DNA of 64,000 nt. It comes from Candidatus Shapirobacteria bacterium. Lineage in GTDB: Bacteria > Patescibacteriota > Microgenomatia > UBA12405. The notes under the pieces are model-generated. The model was not told where the DNA came from. It saw nothing but the letters and a program-made list of their open reading frames with translations, and did not search any database. Each line of letters begins with the position of its first letter. The stretch's first letter is position 1. Where the stretch lies: assembly GCA_041665485.1 (NCBI GenBank), contig JBAYIT010000001.1, positions 73,884-137,883 on the forward strand, written 5' to 3'. This document shows, in pieces, positions 8,697-28,360 of this stretch. The position numbers and the translations under genes were made by a program.

Positions 8697-9969
8697 CCTT
8701 CTCTCTTTTGAGCTTTAATAAATGAACCAGTCTGTCTTTTGATTTTTTCTGCAGACCATTGTCGTTTGGTCTATTTAGGTTTTCAAGAACAATCTCGGCG
8801 ACGGTTTGAGTTTCGGTTTCGGTGTAGCCCCTCGCGGTTATCCAAGATGTTCCCAGCCTGATGCCGCTGGCCACATAAGGCTTTAATGTTTCGCCCGGCA
8901 CTACCTGTCTGTTGGTCAAAATTCCAATATTTTCCAAGTTAGTTTCCGCCTCTTTTCCGGTCAGATTAAAAGTCTTTAGGGTATTTAAAACCATTAAATG
9001 AGTGTCACTTCCGCCCGTAACCATAAGTTCGGGGTATTGTCCAAACACCTTTTCAAAAACTTTAATATTCGTTATCACCCTGGAAACATAGTCCTTAAAC
9101 CAAGGCTTACCAGAATCTATCAAGCATTGGGCTATTTCATAAATACGCCTTAATGGCACGCTTGATTGAACGCCGGGATGGACAGCTCTGTCAATATCCT
9201 CTTTCAGAGATTCTTTGCACAAAATAATGCCGCCATGTGGCCCCAACATGGTTTTATCAAGAGTTAACGTGACCACATCACAATAAGGAAATGGCTTTGG
9301 AAATTTTTCACCCACGATCAAACCGGCAGGGTGCGATAAATCAGCCATTAAATAAGCTCCAACCCGCCTTGAGATATCCGCCAATTTGCCAAAGTCTATT
9401 GTTCTTGGATATGAAGACGCTCCGCAGACAATTAGTTTAGGTTTAAATTCTTTTGCTTGCTTCCTGATGGCGTCATAATCTATCCACCCGTCATTTCCAA
9501 CTCCATAAAAATCAAAATTAAAGAATCTTCCTGAGAAGTTTTTCTTCATTCCATGGGTTAAATGTCCTCCGGCTTCAAACTTCATCGCCAAAACCCTGTC
9601 TCCGTTCTCCAGTAGCCCTTGATACACAGCCTGATTTGCCTGGCTAACCGAATGTGGCTGCACATTGGCATGTTCTGCCCCAAATAATTCACAAGCCACC
9701 TCGGTGGCTATTCTTTCAATCCGGTTAAATCCTTCAGCTCCGGCATAAGGTCTGTGTTCAAGAAGACCTTCGGCAATACTGGCATGCCTAAGGGGAATGT
9801 CGATATATTTTCGAAGAGTCGGGCTGGCCGGAGCAATCAGATTTGTCGTTATTAGGTCATACTGATCCTGCATCTTAGCCGCTAAAACCAACTCCTTTTC
9901 TTTTTCCTGATAATATTTTTTATTATTTTTCACTCTTGGATTAAGCCTAAGATTCTGACTTATAAGCAA
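8674..9969 (-). CDS. glyA: serine hydroxymethyltransferase
   Basis: Strong collinear similarity to SHMT: 'NVQPHSVSQAN', 'GGHLTHG', 'ADLSHPAGLI', PLP-lysine region 'TLDKTMLGPHGG' and 'GSDTHLMVLN'. The N-terminal 'ENY' region is diverged. Confidence 0.85.
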   Translation of the reverse strand: MLISQNLRLNPRVKNNKKYYQEKEKELVLAAKMQDQYDLITTNLIAPASPTLRKYIDIPLRHASIAEGLLEHRPYAGAEGFNRIERIATEVACELFGAEHANVQPHSVSQANQAVYQGLLENGDRVLAMKFEAGGHLTHGMKKNFSGRFFNFDFYGVGNDGWIDYDAIRKQAKEFKPKLIVCGASSYPRTIDFGKLADISRRVGAYLMADLSHPAGLIVGEKFPKPFPYCDVVTLTLDKTMLGPHGGIILCKESLKEDIDRAVHPGVQSSVPLRRIYEIAQCLIDSGKPWFKDYVSRVITNIKVFEKVFGQYPELMVTGGSDTHLMVLNTLKTFNLTGKEAETNLENIGILTNRQVVPGETLKPYVASGIRLGTSWITARGYTETETQTVAEIVLENLNRPNDNGLQKKSKDRLVHLLKLKREKDVWKDEE

Positions 9970-10642
9970 TCGGGTCTTTCATCAGATTCAGCTCAAAGGC
10001 TTCAATTCTGGCCTTACAGTTACTACAATGGCCGCAAGCAACCTCTGTTCCGTTATGGCAGGACCAGGTAAATTCAAACGGAACCTTCATGTTGTTACCC
10101 AATTTTATTGCCCCGGTTTTATCCGTTTCGGTCAGTGGGTGAAAAATCTTAATGTCTTTCTTCAACATCGTTCCCTTTTCAACTACTTTTTGGTAAGCAT
10201 CAATAAATTCAGGACTATTGTCTGGGCATATGTGGTCGCCTCCGGTTGACCCAACTACAATTATGTCCGCACCTTGGACCTCCGCCAAAGCCGTAGCTAC
10301 CCCAAGGAATATCGAATTTCGAAAAGGAACATATTCCAATCGAAAGTTTCTCTCATCAAGCGGTATATTTTTATCCAGCAATGCCGAACCGCCAAAATTT
10401 TTGATCCAAGGAAGATCTACTTTGTAAACTTGTTTAACTTTCCAATGTTTGACTAATTGATCCAAGCACCACTCTTCTTTTTCTGCTGTTTTTTGTCCAT
10501 ATCTAAGAAATAAAAAAATCGGCTGATAACCCTGCTCGATGGCCATCGCCGTCGCCACTGTGCTGTCTAAACCACCACTAATTAAACAAACTGCCTTTTT
10601 TTGTTCAGTTGTCATTATGTCCTCCTTTTTGGACCAAACCAT
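9947..10642 (-). CDS. queC: 7-cyano-7-deazaguanine synthase
   Basis: PP-loop 'LISGGLDST' and C-terminal zinc motif 'CGHCSNCKAR'. Confidence 0.85.
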   Translation of the reverse strand: MVWSKKEDIMTTEQKKAVCLISGGLDSTVATAMAIEQGYQPIFLFLRYGQKTAEKEEWCLDQLVKHWKVKQVYKVDLPWIKNFGGSALLDKNIPLDERNFRLEYVPFRNSIFLGVATALAEVQGADIIVVGSTGGDHICPDNSPEFIDAYQKVVEKGTMLKKDIKIFHPLTETDKTGAIKLGNNMKVPFEFTWSCHNGTEVACGHCSNCKARIEAFELNLMKDPIAYKSES

Positions 10643-11430
10643 ATTAATTGATTTCTCTCAATAATTCTCCACCCTCGGCTATTTGTGTCTTTTTGAACCA
10701 ACGTCTGATGTTCGGTCACTGCCTCTTTAGTTAATCCTTCCGGCATTATTAAGACCCTTTTGGGGTTTAAGTTACAACTTTCAACTATTTCTTCGATTTC
10801 CTTCAGATCTTCAACTCGGCTGACGACAAATTTAAACCATCCAACTGGCCACCCATTAATCAGACTTAAAACCTCGGGCCTAAATCTCAATTTTTTCTCA
10901 TTACCACTGTTGGCTAATTTGGGTGAACAGTTTATTTGACATTGAATCAATTCTGGACTCGGTTTGATCGTGCCATTGGTTTCAATTTCCACTTGCCAAT
11001 CTTTCATTTGGTTTAACAACTTAACAATCAAGTCTTGTTGTAACAAGGGTTCACCGCCGGTTATGACCACCCTTTTTTGGATATTTTTATCCAGCCCAAA
11101 TTTATCCACCCAAGCTTTTTCAATTTCTATTTTTGTTTTTTCTATACTCCAATCTTCTGGTTCCTGCCAGTATTCCGCTCTTTTGGTGTCCCACGTATAT
11201 CCTGTGTCACACCTCCATCCGTTTGGAAAACCACAATGAAGGTTACAAAACTGTAATCTTAAAAACACTGCCGGGCAACCAGCGGTACCTCCTTCAGATT
11301 CCAGTAGACCTTCTCCCTGAAGGGTAGCAAACACTTTATCTCCCGACACTTTAAAAAAATCGAGCTTCCGAGCTGACTTTAACAAGTCACCCTTAGTGGG
11401 TTTATAAACAACGCTAGATTGTTTTTTCAT
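10615..11430 (-). CDS. queE: 7-carboxy-7-deazaguanine synthase (radical SAM)
   Basis: QueE-type cluster motif 'CNLHCGFPNGWRCDTGYTWD' and 'ITGGEPLL'. Confidence 0.8.
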   Translation of the reverse strand: MKKQSSVVYKPTKGDLLKSARKLDFFKVSGDKVFATLQGEGLLESEGGTAGCPAVFLRLQFCNLHCGFPNGWRCDTGYTWDTKRAEYWQEPEDWSIEKTKIEIEKAWVDKFGLDKNIQKRVVITGGEPLLQQDLIVKLLNQMKDWQVEIETNGTIKPSPELIQCQINCSPKLANSGNEKKLRFRPEVLSLINGWPVGWFKFVVSRVEDLKEIEEIVESCNLNPKRVLIMPEGLTKEAVTEHQTLVQKDTNSRGWRIIERNQLIWFGPKRRT

Positions 11431-11550
11431 TTGCAGGTTTTATTGGCTCACCTTCGTGAGGTCCTGCTACCGCTGTAGGTTTTAATGGTCCGCCCATTAA
11501 GAGCGGGACACCTACCACCGTAGTTGGGAGAATCTTAGCTAATTGCAATA
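11431..11550 (-). promoter_or_regulatory. promoter (TTGACA-17-TAAGAT) plus roughly 95-nt structured leader of the queE operon
   Basis: Read on the minus strand: 'TTGACAAAGATATTGCAATTAGCTAAGAT', then leader hairpins CUACGGUGGUAG, CCGCUC-UUAAU-GGGCGG, CUACAGCGGUAG and CUCAC-GAAG-GUGAG before the ATG. Confidence 0.5.
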
Positions 11551-11603
11551 TCTTTGTCAAGATACATGTTTTTTACGAACAGAGAGATGATCGCCCTATG
11601 TTT

Positions 11604-11801
11604 TTATGAGATAATCCAGCGATCTAACAATGTATTTGGTGAAACTCCAGCCTTTCTGGCATTAATTGTTGTCTGATTTATTGCTCGACCGTTTGGTGTT
11701 TGAGGTGTGCCCTTTCGATAAATTTTATCTATTGTTTCTCGGCTCATTCTTTTTAAAAATATTTCGGGATTGTCTTGAAAACCGAGGGAAGTGGAGAACA
11801 A
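11604..11801 (-). pseudogene. ORF fragment / gene remnant downstream of the disrupted helicase
   Basis: A 65-aa ORF with an HTH-like tail 'ARKAGVSPNTLLDRW'. Neighbouring frames contain only short broken ORFs. Confidence 0.25.
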
Positions 11802-11919
11802 AAATTTTGTTTCTGGGGAAAAATCATAAAACGATTTTAAAACTGCCTTTTGTCTGTCTTTTGGGAGTGTAAAAAAGTGCTGATCAACTTGGAAAATGGC
11901 GTGATCATTTCATATTTTA

Positions 11920-14097
11920 TCAAAAAAGTCCCAACTGGTTTTCACAATTAATTTTCTTTTTAGCTGGACTAAAAATTTTATTTAGTCCCAAAGTTCGGTA
12001 AGTTCGTAAACGTTTGAAATACATAATTTTAAGCATTGGTACTTGATCATCAAAATAGTCATAAATCGTAGCGTTGGTTTTTCCCTCAAAACTTCGTTGA
12101 ACTCTACCCACATATTGGATTAGTTTTCCTTTCCACGAAAACGGAAAAGCTAAAAATAGATGTGACACTGCCGGCCAATCAAAACCTTCGCCGATTAATT
12201 TACCCGTAGCAATTAGTAGTTAAAATTGTTTTTGGTTAATTCGTTTAGCAATTCGTTCTCTCTGCTTTTTAGTCATCACTCCAGTAGCTATGGCAGCCTG
12301 AACACCTTTAGTTTATTGTCGAATGAGATCCAGTAGTGTGTGACAGTGGTCGAGACGTTCAGTTAATACTAAGCACTTAGCTCCGGTATTTAACGCATCG
12401 ATAATATCGTCAGTAATTTGATTGTTACGATCAGGGTCGGATATAACTAATCGACAGGCTTCTTGAAAATCTTCTAATTTTACATTAGCTTTAAACTGTG
12501 TTTTTCGAGTGATTAAATCGGTTTTTACGATTTGGTTGGAGTTTTCACTGTTATCAATATTTTCCGTAGTTGCTTTGACTATTTGATAGCTAACATACAA
12601 AAACATCAGTTTTTCTAATTTATCTTTACGATAAGTGGTGGCGGTTAATCCTAAAACATGTTTAGAAGGGAATTGTCTGACGACAGTACTAAAAGTATTG
12701 GCCGGGGCATGATGGCATTCGTCAATAATAATTAACCCAAAATCATTTTTAATTTCATCAACCCCTCGTCTGGATAAAGTCATGTAGGAAGCAATGGTTA
12801 CTTTTTTACCAACACTCCATTTGTTATCGCCAATAATGCCTATATCAAGTTTTGAAAGAGAAAAATAATCAGTAATTCGTTTTTGCCATTGATGGAGCAG
12901 AGTGTTAGTGTGAACAATAATTAAAGTTTTTTGACCCAGTTTTTTCATTAACGCTAGAGCGACCATAGTTTTACCAAAACCAGGTTGAGCTTCCAAAATA
13001 ACTCGGTCATGAGGTAGTAACTGATGTAAAACTTGTTTTTGATCTTTACGAAGGATCAGTTTAGACGGGAAACGTACTTGTTTTGTAGTTACTCGATTAT
13101 CAACAGCCTCGATTTTTATCTGTTCTTTTTGACAAAATTTATTTAGTTTTTCCAAAAATCCCAAAGGAACTCCTATTCCATCTGGCAATCTCTCGAGGGT
13201 TTTAATAAATCGAGGGGTGTTCCAAGTGGAATAACCAAATCGTTCTTTGGTGTAAAAGTCAGGGTTGGGAAAATTTAATTCTTTTTTGAGGTATTTATAC
13301 AGTTTGTCGGGTAAATGAGTGCTAGGAATAAATATGTTTGACCCTAAAATCAATTTAGTTTCTTGATTTTGAGTTGTGGTAACAGGTAGCTCTTCAACAT
13401 TTTCATCGGGCTGGTTAGGCAGATCGTCGATTGTTTTATTGCTGGATAGTTGAAGATATTGATTGATTTCTTGTAAAGATGTTCTTCGAATTGACTGTAG
13501 ATATTGCCATTGATCAGGAATCTCTTGACCATCTGAGTTAATAAAAACGGTTGTGTTGTTTGTGACAAATTTCCCATTAAGTGGCAAACAAATTAAATTT
13601 CCATAACCTTTACCGGTATGTTCATCTTGGCTGGGAAACATTCGATCAAATGTTTTTCGATCTTGGACTCCTGCCTGGTTTAATAGTAATTTACCCATTT
13701 GTCGGGCTAGATGAGCCGGAATTTGCCCGTTAAAGAAAAACCAGACATGACCACCATTGCCCGATTTTGACCGTTCTATGGCACAAAATAGATCATTGTT
13801 AAAAGCTTTAATGGTTACTTTTTGAGCCAAAATCAACCAATCTGGTCCGTCAAAATCGATGGCTAAAAAAGTAGTGGTGTTGTCTGGAAATAATGGATAA
13901 ACGCCAATTACCTGTTTTCCGTCTAAGTGTGATTGAATAACCGAATCTGTCAATGCTAAGGGGCTTTGATTTAGTCGAAAAACTGGAGCGTAACCAGACT
14001 TCTTCTTCGGTAAATCTTCCCAATAACGGGCAAAGACATCGTCTCGGGTGTCAAAGAGAGAACGATAAAGTTTAATATTTTCAGCCGAAATGCTCAT
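11920..14097 (-). pseudogene. primase-polymerase (AEP) / SF2 DExH helicase fusion, disrupted by two in-frame TAA codons
   Basis: N-terminal AEP motifs 'LAIDFDG', 'SKSGNGGHVWFFF' and 'ICLPLNGK'. Helicase motif I 'QPGFGKTM', motif II 'DECHH', motif VI 'QYVGRVQR' and 'LLIATGKLIGEGFDWP'. A single frame runs from 14097 to 11920 and is interrupted only by TAA at 12313-12315 and 12220-12222. Confidence 0.6.
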
Positions 14098-16962: not shown

Positions 16963-17046
16963 GGAGGGTTGGCCGAGTGGTTCATGGCGCACGCCTCGAA
17001 AGCGTGTGGGTGAAAGCCCGCAGAGGTTCAAATCCTCTACCCTCCG
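16963..17046 (+). tRNA. tRNA-Ser(CGA): tRNA-Ser (anticodon CGA)
   Basis: Acceptor GGAGGGT/ACCCTCC, anticodon stem CACGC/GCGTG with loop CTCGAAA, long variable arm, T-arm AGAGG-TTCAAAT-CCTCT. Confidence 0.8.
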
Positions 17047-17048
17047 CC

Positions 17049-17090
17049 TTCGTCCCGACAAAGTCGGGACTTCGGCGGACAATGTCCGCA
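17049..17090 (+). terminator. two consecutive GC hairpins after the tRNA
   Basis: GTCCCGAC-AAA-GTCGGGAC followed by GCGGAC-AAT-GTCCGC. Confidence 0.4.
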
Positions 17091-23478: not shown

Positions 23479-23513
23479 CAGTTAACAGTTACGAGTTATC
23501 GGTTACGAGTTGA
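23479..23513. repeat. heptamer tandem array (CAGTTAA CAGTTAC GAGTTAT CGGTTAC GAGTTGA)
   Basis: Five degenerate 7-mers directly after the clpB stop. A near-identical array lies at 63362-63389. Confidence 0.6.
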
Positions 23514-23544
23514 TCTAGTTTGCGATAAAATAGCGAGTAGTTTA

Positions 23545-23632
23545 GTCTCCGTAGTTCAATGGACCCGCCTACGTTGAAACTTCGGCGGGCAAGTAGAATA
23601 GACTACAGAGGCAGAAGCTAACTTGGACAAGT
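23545..23632 (+). other. partial duplicate of the 5' 28 nt of tRNA-Arg(CCG), interrupted by a 30-nt GC hairpin
   Basis: GTCTCCGTAGTTCAATGGA-[CCCGCCTACGTTGAAACTTCGGCGGGCAAG]-TAGAATAG matches the tRNA 5' end at 23633 (GTCCCCGTAGTTCAATTGGATAGAATAG), then diverges. Confidence 0.55.
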
Positions 23633-23706
23633 TGTCCCCGTAGTTCAATTGGATAGAATAGTGGCCTCCGAAGCCATTGATTCGGGTTCAACTCCCGACG
23701 GGGATA
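23633..23706 (+). tRNA. tRNA-Arg(CCG): tRNA-Arg (anticodon CCG)
   Basis: Acceptor GTCCCCG/CGGGGAT, anticodon stem GTGGC/GCCAT with loop CTCCGAA, T-arm TCGGG-TTCAACT-CCCGA. Confidence 0.8.
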
Positions 23707-23709
23707 CTG

Positions 23710-25825: not shown

Positions 25826-26001
25826 AAATAATAAAAAATAAGGCAAGATCCCCGAGAGAGGGTGTTTTGTCTTTAGCAGGTAGGTTCAAGGTTAAGAATC
25901 CGCTACGAGCCGAAGAAATCAGAAGTCAAGTTGATTGTCTTTGGTTTGAAAAATACAAGACTAATTAGCCTAAAGATTTGATAAAATAGGCTACATCTTT
26001 G

Positions 26002-26077
26002 GAGAAGTCGCACCCGCCTTCGCCAATGGCTTCGGCCGGGCGCAGTAGTGATTCATTGCAAGATGGTTTAACAATTT
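26002..26077 (+). other. partial duplicate of the 5' 27 nt of tRNA-Ser(GGA), interrupted by a 33-nt GC hairpin
   Basis: TTTGGAGAAGTCGCA-[CCCGCCTTCGCCAATGGCTTCGGCCGGGCGCAG]-TAGTGATTCATTGCA, where the tRNA at 26078 reads TTTGGAGAAGTCGCATAGTGGTTCATTGCA. Confidence 0.55.
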
Positions 26078-26165
26078 GGAGAAGTCGCATAGTGGTTCAT
26101 TGCACAGACCTGGAAAGTCTGCGTCCCACAAGGACTCGCGAGTTCGAATCTCGCCTTCTCCGCCA
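26078..26165 (+). tRNA. tRNA-Ser(GGA): tRNA-Ser (anticodon GGA), CCA encoded
   Basis: Acceptor GGAGAAG/CTTCTCC, anticodon stem CAGAC/GTCTG with loop CTGGAAA, long variable arm, T-arm CGAGTTCGAATCTCG, 3' GCCA. Confidence 0.8.
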
Positions 26166-26169
26166 AATT

Positions 26170-27012
26170 ATGTCAAATTCTCAAGGAATTGATTTTTGTT
26201 TATCTCTAAAATTCGGTATGTCATTGAGCATTGTTGCTCGTAAACTTGATCATTTACATGCTGATATAGAATCCTCCTTGATGATGCATAACTTATACGA
26301 GTCATTTAATCCAGAAAACAACAAAACCTACTTTGATGGAAACAAAGAAAGATTAACACAGAGACTACACGATCAGATAACAGACATAAATAGTTTGATT
26401 CGTTTTAATAACAAGTTTATTGCGTTCATTCCGCTAAAACAAAGAATCGTCGTATTGAGTTGGAAGACATTTAGAGAAGTAATAAATGAAAGATTCGAGA
26501 ACAAACTAAGAGATCAAAAGTCTCAAGAATTAGCAAATGAAAATTTAAGATTAAAACTTCAACAACTAGTACAGTTTACACAGAAATCTGTCACAGATTT
26601 TATATCGCATTTAGATGAAGAGAAAAGATTCGAAAAAATTAAATCAATAGGCAAGAAATATGTTAACGGAGTTGATGAATCAATTGATCTATTTTCTTGT
26701 GGATTTTACAATATTTCAATTTTTATAATGGGAAAGACAATTGAATCTGTGATAAATGATCTGCTAAAAAAACTAATAAAAACAAGGAAGATTGAAAATC
26801 TCAATTTAGACGAAGTGAAATATAAAGACAAAATAGGAATATTAAAAGGTTCTAAGTTAATAAATGAAAAGCTATTTCTTGACCTGAATGTAGTCAGGAT
26901 TGACCGCAATTATATTGGTCATCCGTCTCGTAAAAACTTCTCGAGGAATGAGAATAAAATAGCAATAAGCAAAGGATTGTTATTGATAAATGAATTGCAA
27001 AAGAAATTATAA
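26170..27012 (+). CDS. hypothetical protein (coiled-coil rich)
   Basis: The ORF continues upstream through the tRNA. The plausible start is ATG 26170 ('MSNSQGIDF'). No motif recognised. Confidence 0.45.
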   Translation: MSNSQGIDFCLSLKFGMSLSIVARKLDHLHADIESSLMMHNLYESFNPENNKTYFDGNKERLTQRLHDQITDINSLIRFNNKFIAFIPLKQRIVVLSWKTFREVINERFENKLRDQKSQELANENLRLKLQQLVQFTQKSVTDFISHLDEEKRFEKIKSIGKKYVNGVDESIDLFSCGFYNISIFIMGKTIESVINDLLKKLIKTRKIENLNLDEVKYKDKIGILKGSKLINEKLFLDLNVVRIDRNYIGHPSRKNFSRNENKIAISKGLLLINELQKKL

Positions 27013-27055
27013 GGACAGAAAAGTTCCAGACTCATCTGTTCCGCTAAATAAATAT
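27010..27055 (+). repeat. copy 2 of a conserved intergenic motif of about 45 nt (TATAAGGACAGAAARGTTCCAGAC...)
   Basis: About 80% identical to 14279-14326 (TATAAGGACAGAAAGGTTCCAGACCCTAATGCTCCGCCAGATGAATAAA). Both lie just upstream of small genes. Confidence 0.55.
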
Positions 27056-27090
27056 TCAACTTAATTTTACGTATTTTTTTATTATTATAA

Positions 27091-27438
27091 TTGTTTATGG
27101 ACAATAAAGTTTCTGAATATATTGCAAAACAAAAATCGCCGCAGAGAGAAATCTTGATGAAAATAAGAGAATTAATTGCGAGATTGATTCCAGATGCGGA
27201 GGAAAAAATGAGTTATGGAGCCCCGGCTTTTAAATTAAGCGGAAAAACTATTTTATATGCGGCATTTAAAGAACATGTGGGAATTTATCCTGAACCGGAA
27301 ATAATTGAATACTTTAAGAAAGACTTGAAAAATTATAAAACTGCAAAAGGAACCATTAAATTTGATTTAGACAATCCAATTCCTTATGCTTTAATAGAAA
27401 AAATTATTAGTTATAAATACAAAAATGAAATATTGTAA
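27091..27438 (+). CDS. DUF1801 (YdhG-like) domain protein
   Basis: 'SYGAPAFKLSGKTILYAAFKEHVGIYPEPE' is typical of the DUF1801 family. Confidence 0.5.
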   Translation: MFMDNKVSEYIAKQKSPQREILMKIRELIARLIPDAEEKMSYGAPAFKLSGKTILYAAFKEHVGIYPEPEIIEYFKKDLKNYKTAKGTIKFDLDNPIPYALIEKIISYKYKNEIL

Positions 27439-27733
27439 TGCTTGTGGAATGCCCCTTAATAAAAAGGAAGATTTTGCTAATGGTGATGAAAATTCTGATT
27501 TTTGTCTTTATTGTGTAAATGAGGATGGAAGTGTTAAACCCGTTGGAGAAATTTTTGAAGGCGGAGTTCAATTTTTTATGAGCCAATTTGGTGACGATAG
27601 AAATATGGCTGAAAAAATTACTCGAAAAAATATGAATCAACAACCATATTGGCAAGGAAAGGATTGTGGGTGTTTGAAAGGTGAAACGGCAACAGATGAA
27701 GAATTCGCAGAAATGATGAAAAAAGTGGCTTAA
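27425..27733 (+). CDS. zinc-ribbon domain protein
   Basis: 'CNACGMP...CLYC' and a C-terminal 'CGC' cysteine pattern. Confidence 0.45.
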   Translation: MKYCNACGMPLNKKEDFANGDENSDFCLYCVNEDGSVKPVGEIFEGGVQFFMSQFGDDRNMAEKITRKNMNQQPYWQGKDCGCLKGETATDEEFAEMMKKVA

Positions 27734-27829
27734 GAAAGAACAAAATAAGTTCTAACTGCGATAATGGTTCTATATCCAAGTATTTTGGGTTTTGAAAAAC
27801 ATAAGTTTGCCAACAAAGAGGGGGTATAA

Positions 27830-28360
27830 TTGGCTATGAAAAATGCTGTGATATTGCACGCGATGGATGACTCCCCTAACAACCATTGGTATCCGTGGTT
27901 AAAGACAGAATTAGAGAAAAAAGGATACGAAGTTTGGTTGCCACAATTACCGAATGATAAAGATCCACAATTAAACGTATGGGTGCCATTTATTTTGGAT
28001 GGGGGTAAGTTTACTGAAGAAACAGTGATTATTGGCCACTCGGCCGGAGCGGCGGTAATTTTTTCGGTCTTAGAAGAATTGAAAATTAAAATCAAACAAG
28101 CGATTCTGGTAGCTGGATTTTCATTTTACCCGGGTGGTGATGGAATTTTGAAACCAGCCTATGATTGGCGAAAAATAAAAAATAATGTTGGCGAGATTAT
28201 TTTTATTAACTCTGACAATGATCCGTATGGCCACAATGATGTTCGAGCCAGAATAATGCTGGAAATGCTGGATATGCCGGGAAGTGTTCAAATTACGGTA
28301 AAGGGACAAGGTCATTTTTGCGAAAATGAACTTCCATTATTGGCGAGACTGGTTGTATAG
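27830..28360 (+). CDS. alpha/beta hydrolase, RBBP9/YdeN-like serine hydrolase
   Basis: 'HWYPWL' and nucleophile elbow 'GHSAG'. About 176 aa. Confidence 0.6.
   Translation: MAMKNAVILHAMDDSPNNHWYPWLKTELEKKGYEVWLPQLPNDKDPQLNVWVPFILDGGKFTEETVIIGHSAGAAVIFSVLEELKIKIKQAILVAGFSFYPGGDGILKPAYDWRKIKNNVGEIIFINSDNDPYGHNDVRARIMLEMLDMPGSVQITVKGQGHFCENELPLLARLVV

Follow-up and report, generated by a model that had tools for sequence, protein, structure and literature searches.

The att repeats of integrating elements cover the 3′ part of a tRNA gene, from the anticodon or T-loop, flank kilobases of element DNA and adjoin an integrase. Palindromes of the repetitive extragenic palindromic (REP) type are dispersed in tens to hundreds of intergenic copies. 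In the split tRNA genes of Nanoarchaeum and the non-canonical D-arm introns of archaeal tRNAs, the separate piece is needed for the sole functional tRNA, and both systems rely on the bulge-helix-bulge (BHB) endonuclease. The tRNA introns described so far in Patescibacteria are group I introns located in the anticodon loop (PMC13011429). The TIGR-Tas arrays of candidate phyla radiation (CPR) bacteria are tandem units with box C and D motifs and two spacers of 8–12 nt, adjoining a gene for a Nop-domain Tas protein (PMC12045711). Engineered pre-tRNA leader riboswitches pair with the 5′ part of the tRNA (PMC8925977). The subject of this text is an element found upstream of two tRNA genes, tRNA-Arg(CCG) and tRNA-Ser(GGA), in a 64-kb stretch (the window, 64,000 nt) of contig JBAYIT010000001.1 from a Candidatus Shapirobacteria bacterium. 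It consists of a partial copy of the 5′ part of the tRNA itself, split by a GC-rich hairpin and followed by a short spacer.

Sequence comparison shows a conserved, promoter-proximal 5′ leader module at certain tRNA genes of Microgenomates (Shapirobacteria and Woesebacteria). The favoured reading, held with a little less than even confidence, is an old tandem duplication of the leader and the tRNA 5′ half that has been retained as a structured pre-tRNA leader able to compete for the 3′ acceptor strand.

All features of the two loci lie on the + strand. A -10-like motif, GATAAAATAG (23524–23533), read by eye, lies 11 nt 5′ of the Arg self-copy. The first segment of this copy, segment a, is GTCTCCGTAGTTCAATGGA (23545–23563) and corresponds to nt 1–19 of tRNA-Arg(CCG) with one mismatch and one T missing. 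It spans the acceptor 5′ strand, the 5′ strand of the D-stem and the D-loop through A20, and could form 7/7 pairs with the tRNA's 3′ acceptor strand, U4·G69 among them as a wobble. The hairpin unit of 30 nt (23564–23593) contains CCCGCC-TACGTTGAAACTTC-GGCGGG (23564–23589, 26 nt) and the tail CAAG (23590–23593). The predicted fold is CCCGCC-UAC-GUUGAAAC-UUC-GGCGGG, with a 6-bp stem, a 3×3 internal loop (UAC/UUC), a closing G-C pair and a small loop. Segment b′, TAGAATAG (23594–23601), matches the tRNA at 23653–23660 in 8/8 positions and represents the end of the D-loop, the 3′ strand of the D-stem and nt 26. The spacer of 32 nt (23602–23633) is unrelated to the tRNA and contains GGCAGAAGC and a short hairpin immediately 5′ of the functional tRNA-Arg(CCG) (23634–23707; called by ARAGORN, 64.1 bits with Rfam RF00005). 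A first-pass annotation, made from the sequence of the window alone, had described a partial 5′ self-copy upstream of this gene, and the order of nt 1–19, hairpin unit, nt 20–27, 32-nt spacer and tRNA confirms it.

The same annotation had assigned the same architecture to the tRNA-Ser(GGA) locus. The build is indeed the same, whereas the hairpin stands at another position of the copied tRNA, after nt 12 rather than after nt 19/20; the common context is a TAG 3′ of the hairpin. The motif GATAAAATAG recurs at 25980–25989, again 11 nt 5′ of the self-copy. Segment a, GGAGAAGTCGCA (26001–26012), is identical to nt 1–12 of tRNA-Ser(GGA) (12/12). The hairpin unit (26013–26045) is made up of a predicted hairpin, CCCGCC..GGCCGGG (26013–26040), and the tail CGCAG; its fold is CCCGCC-UUC-GCCAAUGGC-UUC-GGC(C)GGG, with a bulged C, a UUC/UUC loop and a variable inner hairpin. 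Segment b′ and spacer (26046–26077) comprise TAGTGATTCATTGCA (26046–26060), which is identical to nt 13–27 of the tRNA at 14/15 positions, a decayed anticodon-stem remnant AGATGG and the spacer TTTAACAATTT. The functional tRNA-Ser(GGA) follows at 26078–26165 (ARAGORN; Rfam, 55.8 bits). Both hairpins share the pattern CCCGCC-T[AT]CG...CTTCGGC(C)GGG-C..AG-TAG, in agreement with the earlier proposal that the two inserts are homologous. ARAGORN calls four tRNAs in all in the window. Neither ARAGORN nor Rfam, at the gathering score or at E<=10, detects a second tRNA at 23545–23633 or 26001–26077, so the idea that the upstream copy belongs to a complete second tRNA falls away. Two independent assemblies of the same organism (ENA and JGI) are identical in sequence to the window, and the element is therefore no assembly artefact.

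Syntenic loci in related genomes were located through homologues of ClpC and YbaK. The identity of ClpC to that of the window is 90% at the amino acid level in L088, 86% in L084, L085 and L086 (91% to L088), 85% in L089 and 72% in L090. Genome L088 carries both elements, with 85/89 positions of the Arg element and 71/77 of the Ser element identical to the window. Within the Arg element, the hairpin unit is identical at 30/30 positions and the spacer at 30/32; of the six differences in the Ser element, four sit in the hairpin tip. The whole element is 92–96% identical between these two genomes, whereas four-fold degenerate sites are 37–53% identical. The corresponding values are 0.81 for ClpC DNA, 16/29 for the leader 5′ of the Ser copy, 54/74 for tRNA-Arg(CCG), which is a different allele, and 85/85 for tRNA-Ser(GGA). 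Even at the coding-DNA rate, the probability of at least 85/89 matches in the Arg element is 6.5e-5. ClpC identity does not leave the range 0.76–0.87 on the way to the 3′ end of the gene, so that the contrast between element and ClpC is not explained by a long tract of recent recombination. Such a tract is ruled out as the source of the high identity by this profile and by the flanking tRNA-Arg, which is 73% identical. A recombination tract restricted to the element itself may be the source.

The copy also follows its own tRNA. Between the window and L088, the Arg copy has two differences (U/C in the D-loop and A/G at nt 26), and both coincide with differences between the tRNA alleles; segment b′ of L088 is TAGAATG, matching the tRNA of that genome. 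Self-copy and hairpin are present at tRNA-Ser(GGA) in L088, L090, L097 and L109, and are decayed in L098. The copy and the tRNA are both GGAGAGGTCGGA (12/12) in L090, with the same hairpin type at the same junction, and both GGAGAGGTCG (10/10) in L097, with a different hairpin. The Woesebacteria genome L109 has the copy GGAGGGAT.AGTGGTT and three hairpins. Each of GGAGAAGTCGCA, GGAGAGGTCGGA, GGAGAGGTCG and GGAGGGAT is identical to the start of the local tRNA. In L098, the self-copy is reduced to GGAG, with the same hairpin type placed after nt 4/5. Upstream of a tRNA-Arg(GCG) gene of L109 stand a 19/19 copy, which stops at the same ...AATGGA, and then a homologous hairpin, CCAGCC-GAC-GCUAAUGC-UUU-GGCUGG; the spacer of this element is weakly similar to that of the window Arg element (33/2000 shuffles scored as high). 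The sequence TTAACAAT is found again 5′ of tRNA-Ser in L088, L097 and L098.

Across the related genomes, an exact upstream copy of tRNA nt 1–8 was found at 7/36 tRNA loci, and the window Arg locus, with one mismatch, is the eighth. The downstream control gave 0/36 loci, and the chance expectation is about 0.002 per locus. The first-pass annotation had suggested a comparison of the same tRNA loci in relatives; self-copy and hairpin recur there (8/36 loci upstream against 0/36 downstream). It had also allowed that pattern and hairpin might be unique to the two window sites, and both are found at other loci. The element is missing at the same loci in L084, L085, L086, L089, L087, L102 and L165. 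The Ser locus of L084 equals that of L088 minus the segment between the two GGAGAAGTCGCA repeats, with the same leader joined straight to the tRNA. One lineage (L084) has apparently lost both elements, by deletion between direct repeats.

The position of the element is seen by comparison with these genomes. In relatives without it, motif and leader abut tRNA-Arg(CCG), as GGTAAAATAGCGGGAGTTTG followed by GTCTCC in L084 and GTTAAAATAGCGGGTAGTTTA followed by GTCTCC in L089. The same motif and leader adjoin tRNA-Ser(GGA) directly in L084 and L085, with GATAAAATAGGGGGTTTACTAAGCTATTT followed by GGAGAAG in L084. The self-copy occupies the apparent place of the tRNA start in element-free relatives and, since it stands there after GATAAAATAG, would be transcribed as a 5′ leader. 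The promoter role of GATAAAATAG, assigned by eye, is putative; a consensus promoter scanner gave no call at this motif, as it demands a -35 hexamer, and nothing useful at the Arg and Ser loci. A direct repeat, GTTACGAGTT..GGTTACGAGTT (23486–23515), lies right after the ClpC stop codon and is kept in L088 and L089; it may be a candidate regulator-binding or termination site.

Traces of the origin are visible in the Ser element. Its spacer GGTTTAACAATTT resembles the native leader GGGGGTTTACTAAGCTGTTT, and the copied tRNA sequence can be traced, with small deletions, to about the anticodon loop (GCA-AGA--TGG vs GCACAGACCTGG). The L090 spacer holds a second GATAAAATA. A leader-like spacer and a copy that fades near the anticodon loop are the footprint of a tandem duplication of the leader and tRNA nt 1 to about 35. 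On the origin proposed from this anatomy, the native leader and the first ~35 nt of the tRNA would have been duplicated in tandem as one short segment, its breakpoint lying close to the anticodon loop. A hairpin of a lineage-specific family restricted to tRNA loci would then have entered the upstream copy, or the copy would have formed around it. The hairpin position differs between lineages, which implies repeated entry of hairpins into the copy or recurrence of the duplication. Recombination between tRNA gene copies, as proposed in the first-pass annotation, fits such a duplication loosely. The annotation had also proposed that a small element targeting tRNA 5′ halves left these copies as scars. 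That origin finds no support as stated: in 265 kb, the hairpin family was found only at tRNA loci, no integrase or transposase gene lies nearby, and phage contigs gave no matches beyond those judged to be due to chance. Element conservation far above that of four-fold sites, a copy that keeps matching its own tRNA across lineages and the restriction to tRNA loci therefore point to selection or active homogenisation and not to a decaying scar.

The hairpin belongs to a recognisable family. The pattern CCGCCN{6,30}CTTCGGC matches three times in the window, where 0.10 matches would be expected, and each match is at a tRNA gene; the third (17043–17079) overlaps the 3′ end of tRNA-Ser(CGA). In an alignment of nine hairpins, CC..CG is invariant in the 5′ strand and CUU.GG in the 3′ strand. 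All nine share a GC stem of 5–6 bp, a 3×3 internal loop with a constant C·U mismatch, a closing G-C pair and a variable tip. Compensatory changes in the outer stem convert C-G to A-U (L109), G-C to U-A with the bulged C kept (L090) and a further pair to U-A (L098), and the stem is broken in 0/9. The outer part of the Ser hairpin is conserved in L088 and L090. A covariance model, R1, was built from the nine aligned hairpins. In 265 kb from 14 sources (partial genomes), R1 found only the nine training hairpins, all at tRNA loci, and two weak promoter-adjacent matches in L088; it scores the Arg hairpin at 42.4 bits (E=2e-7) and the Ser hairpin at 34.5 bits. A motif scan covering 242 kb agreed with this. 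The window holds 14 GC-rich 6-bp hairpins against 4.65 expected, with four at tRNA loci. In a collection of metagenome contigs evidently without these organisms, a tRNA-Ser 24-mer gave 0 matches and the Ser-type hairpin-tail pattern gave six, on GC-rich or unrelated contigs with no tRNA. Two unrelated metagenome contigs (L092 and L095) have tandem repeats of ~63 nt with CTTCGGGCGGGCGGAGTAGTGGCTAG, which are chance pattern matches with no tRNA nearby. Viral contigs gave 51 matches to the hairpin pattern, all on contigs of 49–73% GC with no nearby tRNA of the relevant types, and these were judged to be chance.

The third window member forms part of the 3′ trailer of tRNA-Ser(CGA). This hairpin (17043–17089, + strand, fold z = -5.0) is UCCGCC-UUC-GUCCCGAC-AAA-GUCGGGAC-UUC-GGCGGA, and it overlaps the last bases of the tRNA and a second hairpin, GCGGAC-AAU-GUCCGC. 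The two trailer hairpins, CCGCC..GGCGG and GCGGAC-AAU-GUCCGC, share GCGG and are mutually exclusive, and may act as a processing or termination switch. The ACAnnGUCCGC hairpin is found again 3′ of tRNA-Ser genes in L084, L090 and L098. An orthologous trailer hairpin of the same shape and other sequence is present in L084, and in L098 two tRNA-Ser genes have the window type as their 3′ trailer, its 5′ strand including the last tRNA bases. At the orthologous trailer place, L084, L090 and L109 have a second hairpin type (ACGUAA..AACGU).

The first 7 nt of the leader copy are those of the tRNA acceptor 5′ strand in every genome. As the copy starts with this strand, it can always pair with the 3′ acceptor strand, and the precursor would thus have two competing folds. 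In 5/5 Ser precursors, the structure chosen by RNAalifold joins the upstream copy to the 3′ acceptor strand, and three of these pairs have changed on both sides. When pairing with the copy is forced, the nearest-neighbour energy is equal to or better than that of the native fold in 8/8 precursors, by 0.3–11 kcal/mol. According to the proposed mechanism, the whole module would be transcribed from the tRNA's own promoter as a 5′ leader and removed by RNase P. It would act in cis on the folding, processing or output of that tRNA, the self-copy offering the 3′ acceptor strand a competing partner. A factor would bind or process the hairpin, and hairpins of this type in tRNA-Ser 3′ trailers would be targets of that same factor. 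Selection would keep the module, and recombination between the two direct repeats would remove it cleanly, as in L084. Repeat recombination could easily delete this built-in competitor; that it has been kept and conserved speaks for a role. A more specific proposal is doubtful, though possible: that the element represents a new natural cis-regulatory class of pre-tRNA leaders in CPR bacteria, in which a sense-orientation imitation of the tRNA's acceptor 5′ strand and D arm, split by a protein-binding hairpin, would compete with the real 5′ half for the 3′ acceptor strand and so gate RNase P processing and output of Ser-GGA, Arg-CCG and Arg-GCG tRNAs, and in which the hairpin factor would also act on tRNA-Ser 3′ trailers.

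Several observations weigh against a maintained leader. The promoter, co-transcription and RNase P removal are all inferred from sequence, and the fold energies leave out tRNA tertiary structure and co-transcriptional folding. The element is dispensable, to judge from its absence at the same loci in L084, L089, L087, L102 and L165. In L098, the self-copy is decayed (GGAG) while the hairpin remains, and copy identity is thus not always maintained. The hairpin lies after nt 4/5, 10, 12 or ~20 depending on the lineage, and the Ser loci of L097 and L109 use unrelated hairpins; this variation would fit repeated insertion as well as function. The tracking of the tRNA at unpaired positions (D-loop and nt 26) would be better explained by gene conversion than by selection for pairing. 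Related hairpins may also be mobile. Compared with the window, L088 has a 31-nt related hairpin, GTTCACCTTCGCTAAGGCTACGGTGGA, inserted with flanking TGCG repeats. The tRNA-Ser(GCT) trailer of L098 (5334–5420), CCGCC-TTCG..(70 nt)..CTTC-GGCGG, encloses an inverted AGGCC-TACG-TTAAA-CTTC-GGCCT, the loop of which is almost the same as that of the window Arg hairpin. This indel and this nested hairpin suggest that related hairpins can move or be copied at the DNA level. The L088 insertion (9565–9600; window counterpart 23520–23524) stands just 5′ of GATAAAATAG, and a second copy of GTTCACCTTCGCTAAGGCTACGGTGGA with the promoter motif lies 5′ of the NUDIX gene in L088 (9915–9955). No clean short duplication flanking the D-loop hairpins was seen at the window Arg and Ser loci.

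These observations are shared by a neutral or selfish account, which is considered possible but falls well short of probable. The element would be the relic of a tandem duplication of the promoter-proximal tRNA part with one or more small palindromic insertions, its repeats homogenised by gene conversion or slipped-strand repair. Hairpin extrusion would aid homogenisation, and the module, having no function of its own, would be tolerated because RNase P removes it. The clean loss in L084 fits a dispensable relic, as do the variation of hairpin position and type (the L109 Ser copy has three separate hairpins), the conversion-like tracking of unpaired positions, the TGCG-flanked indel of L088 and the nested inverted hairpin of L098. 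Duplicative insertions of this kind do occur in these genomes: about 54 nt of the ClpC 3′ end are present twice in L088 (7605–7660 and 9466–9520), restoring the gene end on either side of an inserted minus-strand gene for a 604-aa DUF6909 protein, an event that may be analogous in logic to the duplication of the tRNA 5′ part. However, conversion cannot reach the non-repeated hairpin (30/30) and spacer (30/32), which are nevertheless conserved where synonymous divergence is saturated. The outer stem, loop and tail of the Ser hairpin are also conserved, with compensatory change, out to the relative with 72% ClpC identity. A competing acceptor strand should be mildly harmful and easily deleted, but at least six lineages have kept it. 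Nor does the hairpin family look dispersed: the 265 kb of partial genomes held no non-tRNA copies besides the two weak matches.

Two further explanations were weighed. A remnant of site-specific integration is improbable; here, an element with an att site mimicking the tRNA 5′ half would have displaced the promoter and 5′ part, its body being deleted later and the hairpin left over from the element end. The tRNA genes of these genomes do behave as recombination junctions, with gene content 3′ of tRNA-Arg and tRNA-Ser that differs between close relatives, a gene of the MFS family found in the window only, a low-GC open reading frame (ORF) 3′ of tRNA-Ser and mosaic tRNA-Arg alleles; L097 has a 3′-end tRNA-Ser(CGA) repeat near a large serine recombinase gene. 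Against integration, the hairpin lies inside the copied tRNA sequence and not at its edge. The distance from repeat to repeat is uniformly 69–101 nt in eight loci, and an element body is found between the repeats at none. In the window, BLAST gives no displaced or extra 3′ tRNA fragment, and no integrase adjoins the loci. The phage-contig matches to the hairpin pattern bear no relevant tRNA. Very little credence is given to an antisense or guide-like RNA of the minus strand, which would read anti-b′, hairpin scaffold and anti-a, with a GAA/GAA internal loop, and be complementary to the tRNA 5′ part. Such complementarity would explain copy tracking, the conserved TTAACAAT 5′ of tRNA-Ser reads TTGTTAA on the minus strand, like an extended -10, and the GAA/GAA loop could form sheared G·A pairs. 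Minus-strand Rfam matches to box C/D RNAs are weak and non-significant (E = 1.7 and 5.9). The consensus scan gave neither promoter nor terminator for this strand, and box C/D motifs and a tandem array are missing, as is any nearby Tas-, Cas- or TnpB-like gene. The sole informative wobble pair in the related 3′ hairpins (G·U in L090) lies on the tRNA strand, and simple duplication already explains the direct-repeat orientation. The maintained pre-tRNA leader is the favoured reading.

The tRNA loci themselves show further signs of rearrangement. Among close relatives, tRNA-Arg(CCG) exists as two very different alleles (window 23634–23707 vs L088 9709–9780, L084 and L089; 54/74 between window and L088), in which all stems differ by paired changes and the distribution departs from ClpC relatedness. 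Among the relatives compared, the MFS gene 3′ of tRNA-Arg(CCG) is found in the window only. From this allele distribution and the differing downstream genes, the tRNA gene appears to be a recombination junction. Over 26001–28000, GC drops to 0.328, against ~0.41 elsewhere, across a no-Pfam ORF of ~280 aa directly 3′ of tRNA-Ser(GGA); as relatives have other genes there, this low-GC DNA looks acquired. One gene caller stretched the ORF to 337 aa, starting inside the Ser element and running across tRNA-Ser(GGA). In L097 (4560–4690; also in L103), the 3′ end of tRNA-Ser(CGA), GTCCCTCTCTCTCCGC, is repeated ~90 nt downstream of the gene, and a large serine recombinase gene (L097 5474–7045; also in L103) adjoins tRNA-Ser(GCT). 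The repeat is a conventional 3′-side att-type repeat in the same organism group.

Elsewhere in the window, GC skew flips from negative to strongly positive (about +0.3) near 12–14 kb, within a region of ~10000–14000, a possible sign of a replication origin or strand switch. A stretch of ~880 nt (11430–12313) without a long ORF resembles a decayed minus-strand gene. Within it, a GC-rich, structured-looking stretch (11440–11530; GGCTCACCTTCGTGAGGTCC...GGTCCGCCCATTAAGAGCGGGAC) has no Rfam match at E<=1. The minus strand of 12313–14097 encodes a 594-aa protein in which a TOTE-type archaeo-eukaryotic primase domain is fused to a helicase.

A functional module would mean that a tRNA can be controlled in a new way, by a leader that imitates half of it. 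Such control would be most important where conventional regulators are very few, and CPR genomes would gain an unannotated structured RNA element. If it is a homogenised relic, it would document a 5′-side self-duplication of tRNA genes, unlike the familiar 3′-side att repeats, together with a hairpin family so far found almost only at tRNA loci and a clean loss through repeat recombination. A caution for annotation also follows, as gene callers run ORFs straight across the element region.

Several known identities were tried for the element and rejected. Neither copy is a tRNA gene with a complete cloverleaf, as RF00005 and ARAGORN give no call there. An intrinsic terminator or attenuator is not indicated, the hairpins being followed by CAAGUAGAAUAG and CGCAGUAGUGAUUC with no U tract, and the scanner calls none. 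The Arg element has an AUG-initiated frame of 20 codons with CGG-CGG; a leader peptide was rejected because the AUG is ACG in L088. An acceptor-like stem in the Arg element (GUCUCCGUAG / CUACAGAGGC) is no general feature, having no counterpart in the Ser elements or L109. A TIGR-Tas or box C/D guide array does not fit either: the element stands as one unit, box C/D motifs are missing from it, and none of the genes called around it is Tas-like.

Split tRNA genes and archaeal D-arm introns resemble the element in having a tRNA 5′ piece followed by GC-rich pairing sequence, or extra sequence in the D-loop. Here, however, a complete tRNA follows, which rules out a BHB intron or a split tRNA; the copy stops before the anticodon, and the 3×3 loops are directly opposed and not offset bulges. 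A tRNA intron, of group I or BHB type, is likewise rejected. The host sequence is a fragment of 27–35 nt with no Rfam intron match, and the inserted hairpin of 30–33 nt has opposed 3×3 loops.

The likeness to att repeats lies in the direct repeat of a tRNA part beside an intact tRNA, in the tRNA locus as a recombination junction and in the variable downstream genes. The first-pass annotation had held that standard 3′-end att duplication does not explain the pattern, and rightly so, since the repeat covers the tRNA 5′ part: nt 1–19 and 20–27 at the Arg locus and nt 1–12 and 13–27 at the Ser locus. It lies 69–101 nt upstream, with only hairpin and spacer between the repeats (58–70 nt) and no integrase found among the neighbours, which are ClpC, MFS, YbaK, NUDIX and the no-Pfam ORF. 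The REP elements, bacterial interspersed mosaic elements (BIME), Rickettsia palindromic elements (RPE) and miniature inverted-repeat transposable elements (MITE) are likewise short, imperfect, GC-rich palindromes in which a mismatch or loop is conserved and the tip varies. Further points of likeness are a related 31-nt hairpin that is an indel with a 4-nt flanking repeat, and another that is nested and inverted. In contrast to the dispersed REP type, the present family was found only at tRNA loci in the 265 kb of partial genomes and shows stem covariation instead of sequence identity, and no RAYT or IS200-type gene was seen in the available genome parts.

Structured pre-tRNA leaders and trailers that affect RNase P, the engineered leader riboswitches (PMC8925977) and small RNAs derived from tRNA spacers share with the element a cis-encoded leader able to sequester acceptor-stem strands or compete for them, which could gate 5′ processing. 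Whereas the engineered leaders (PMC8925977) pair with the 5′ part, the natural one repeats it in sense orientation and so competes for the 3′ strand. In Rfam 15, no natural leader family of this design was found, nor was any described equivalent in the literature searched. The element is best filed as a combination of two known things, a partial duplication of a tRNA gene and small palindromes flanking tRNAs.

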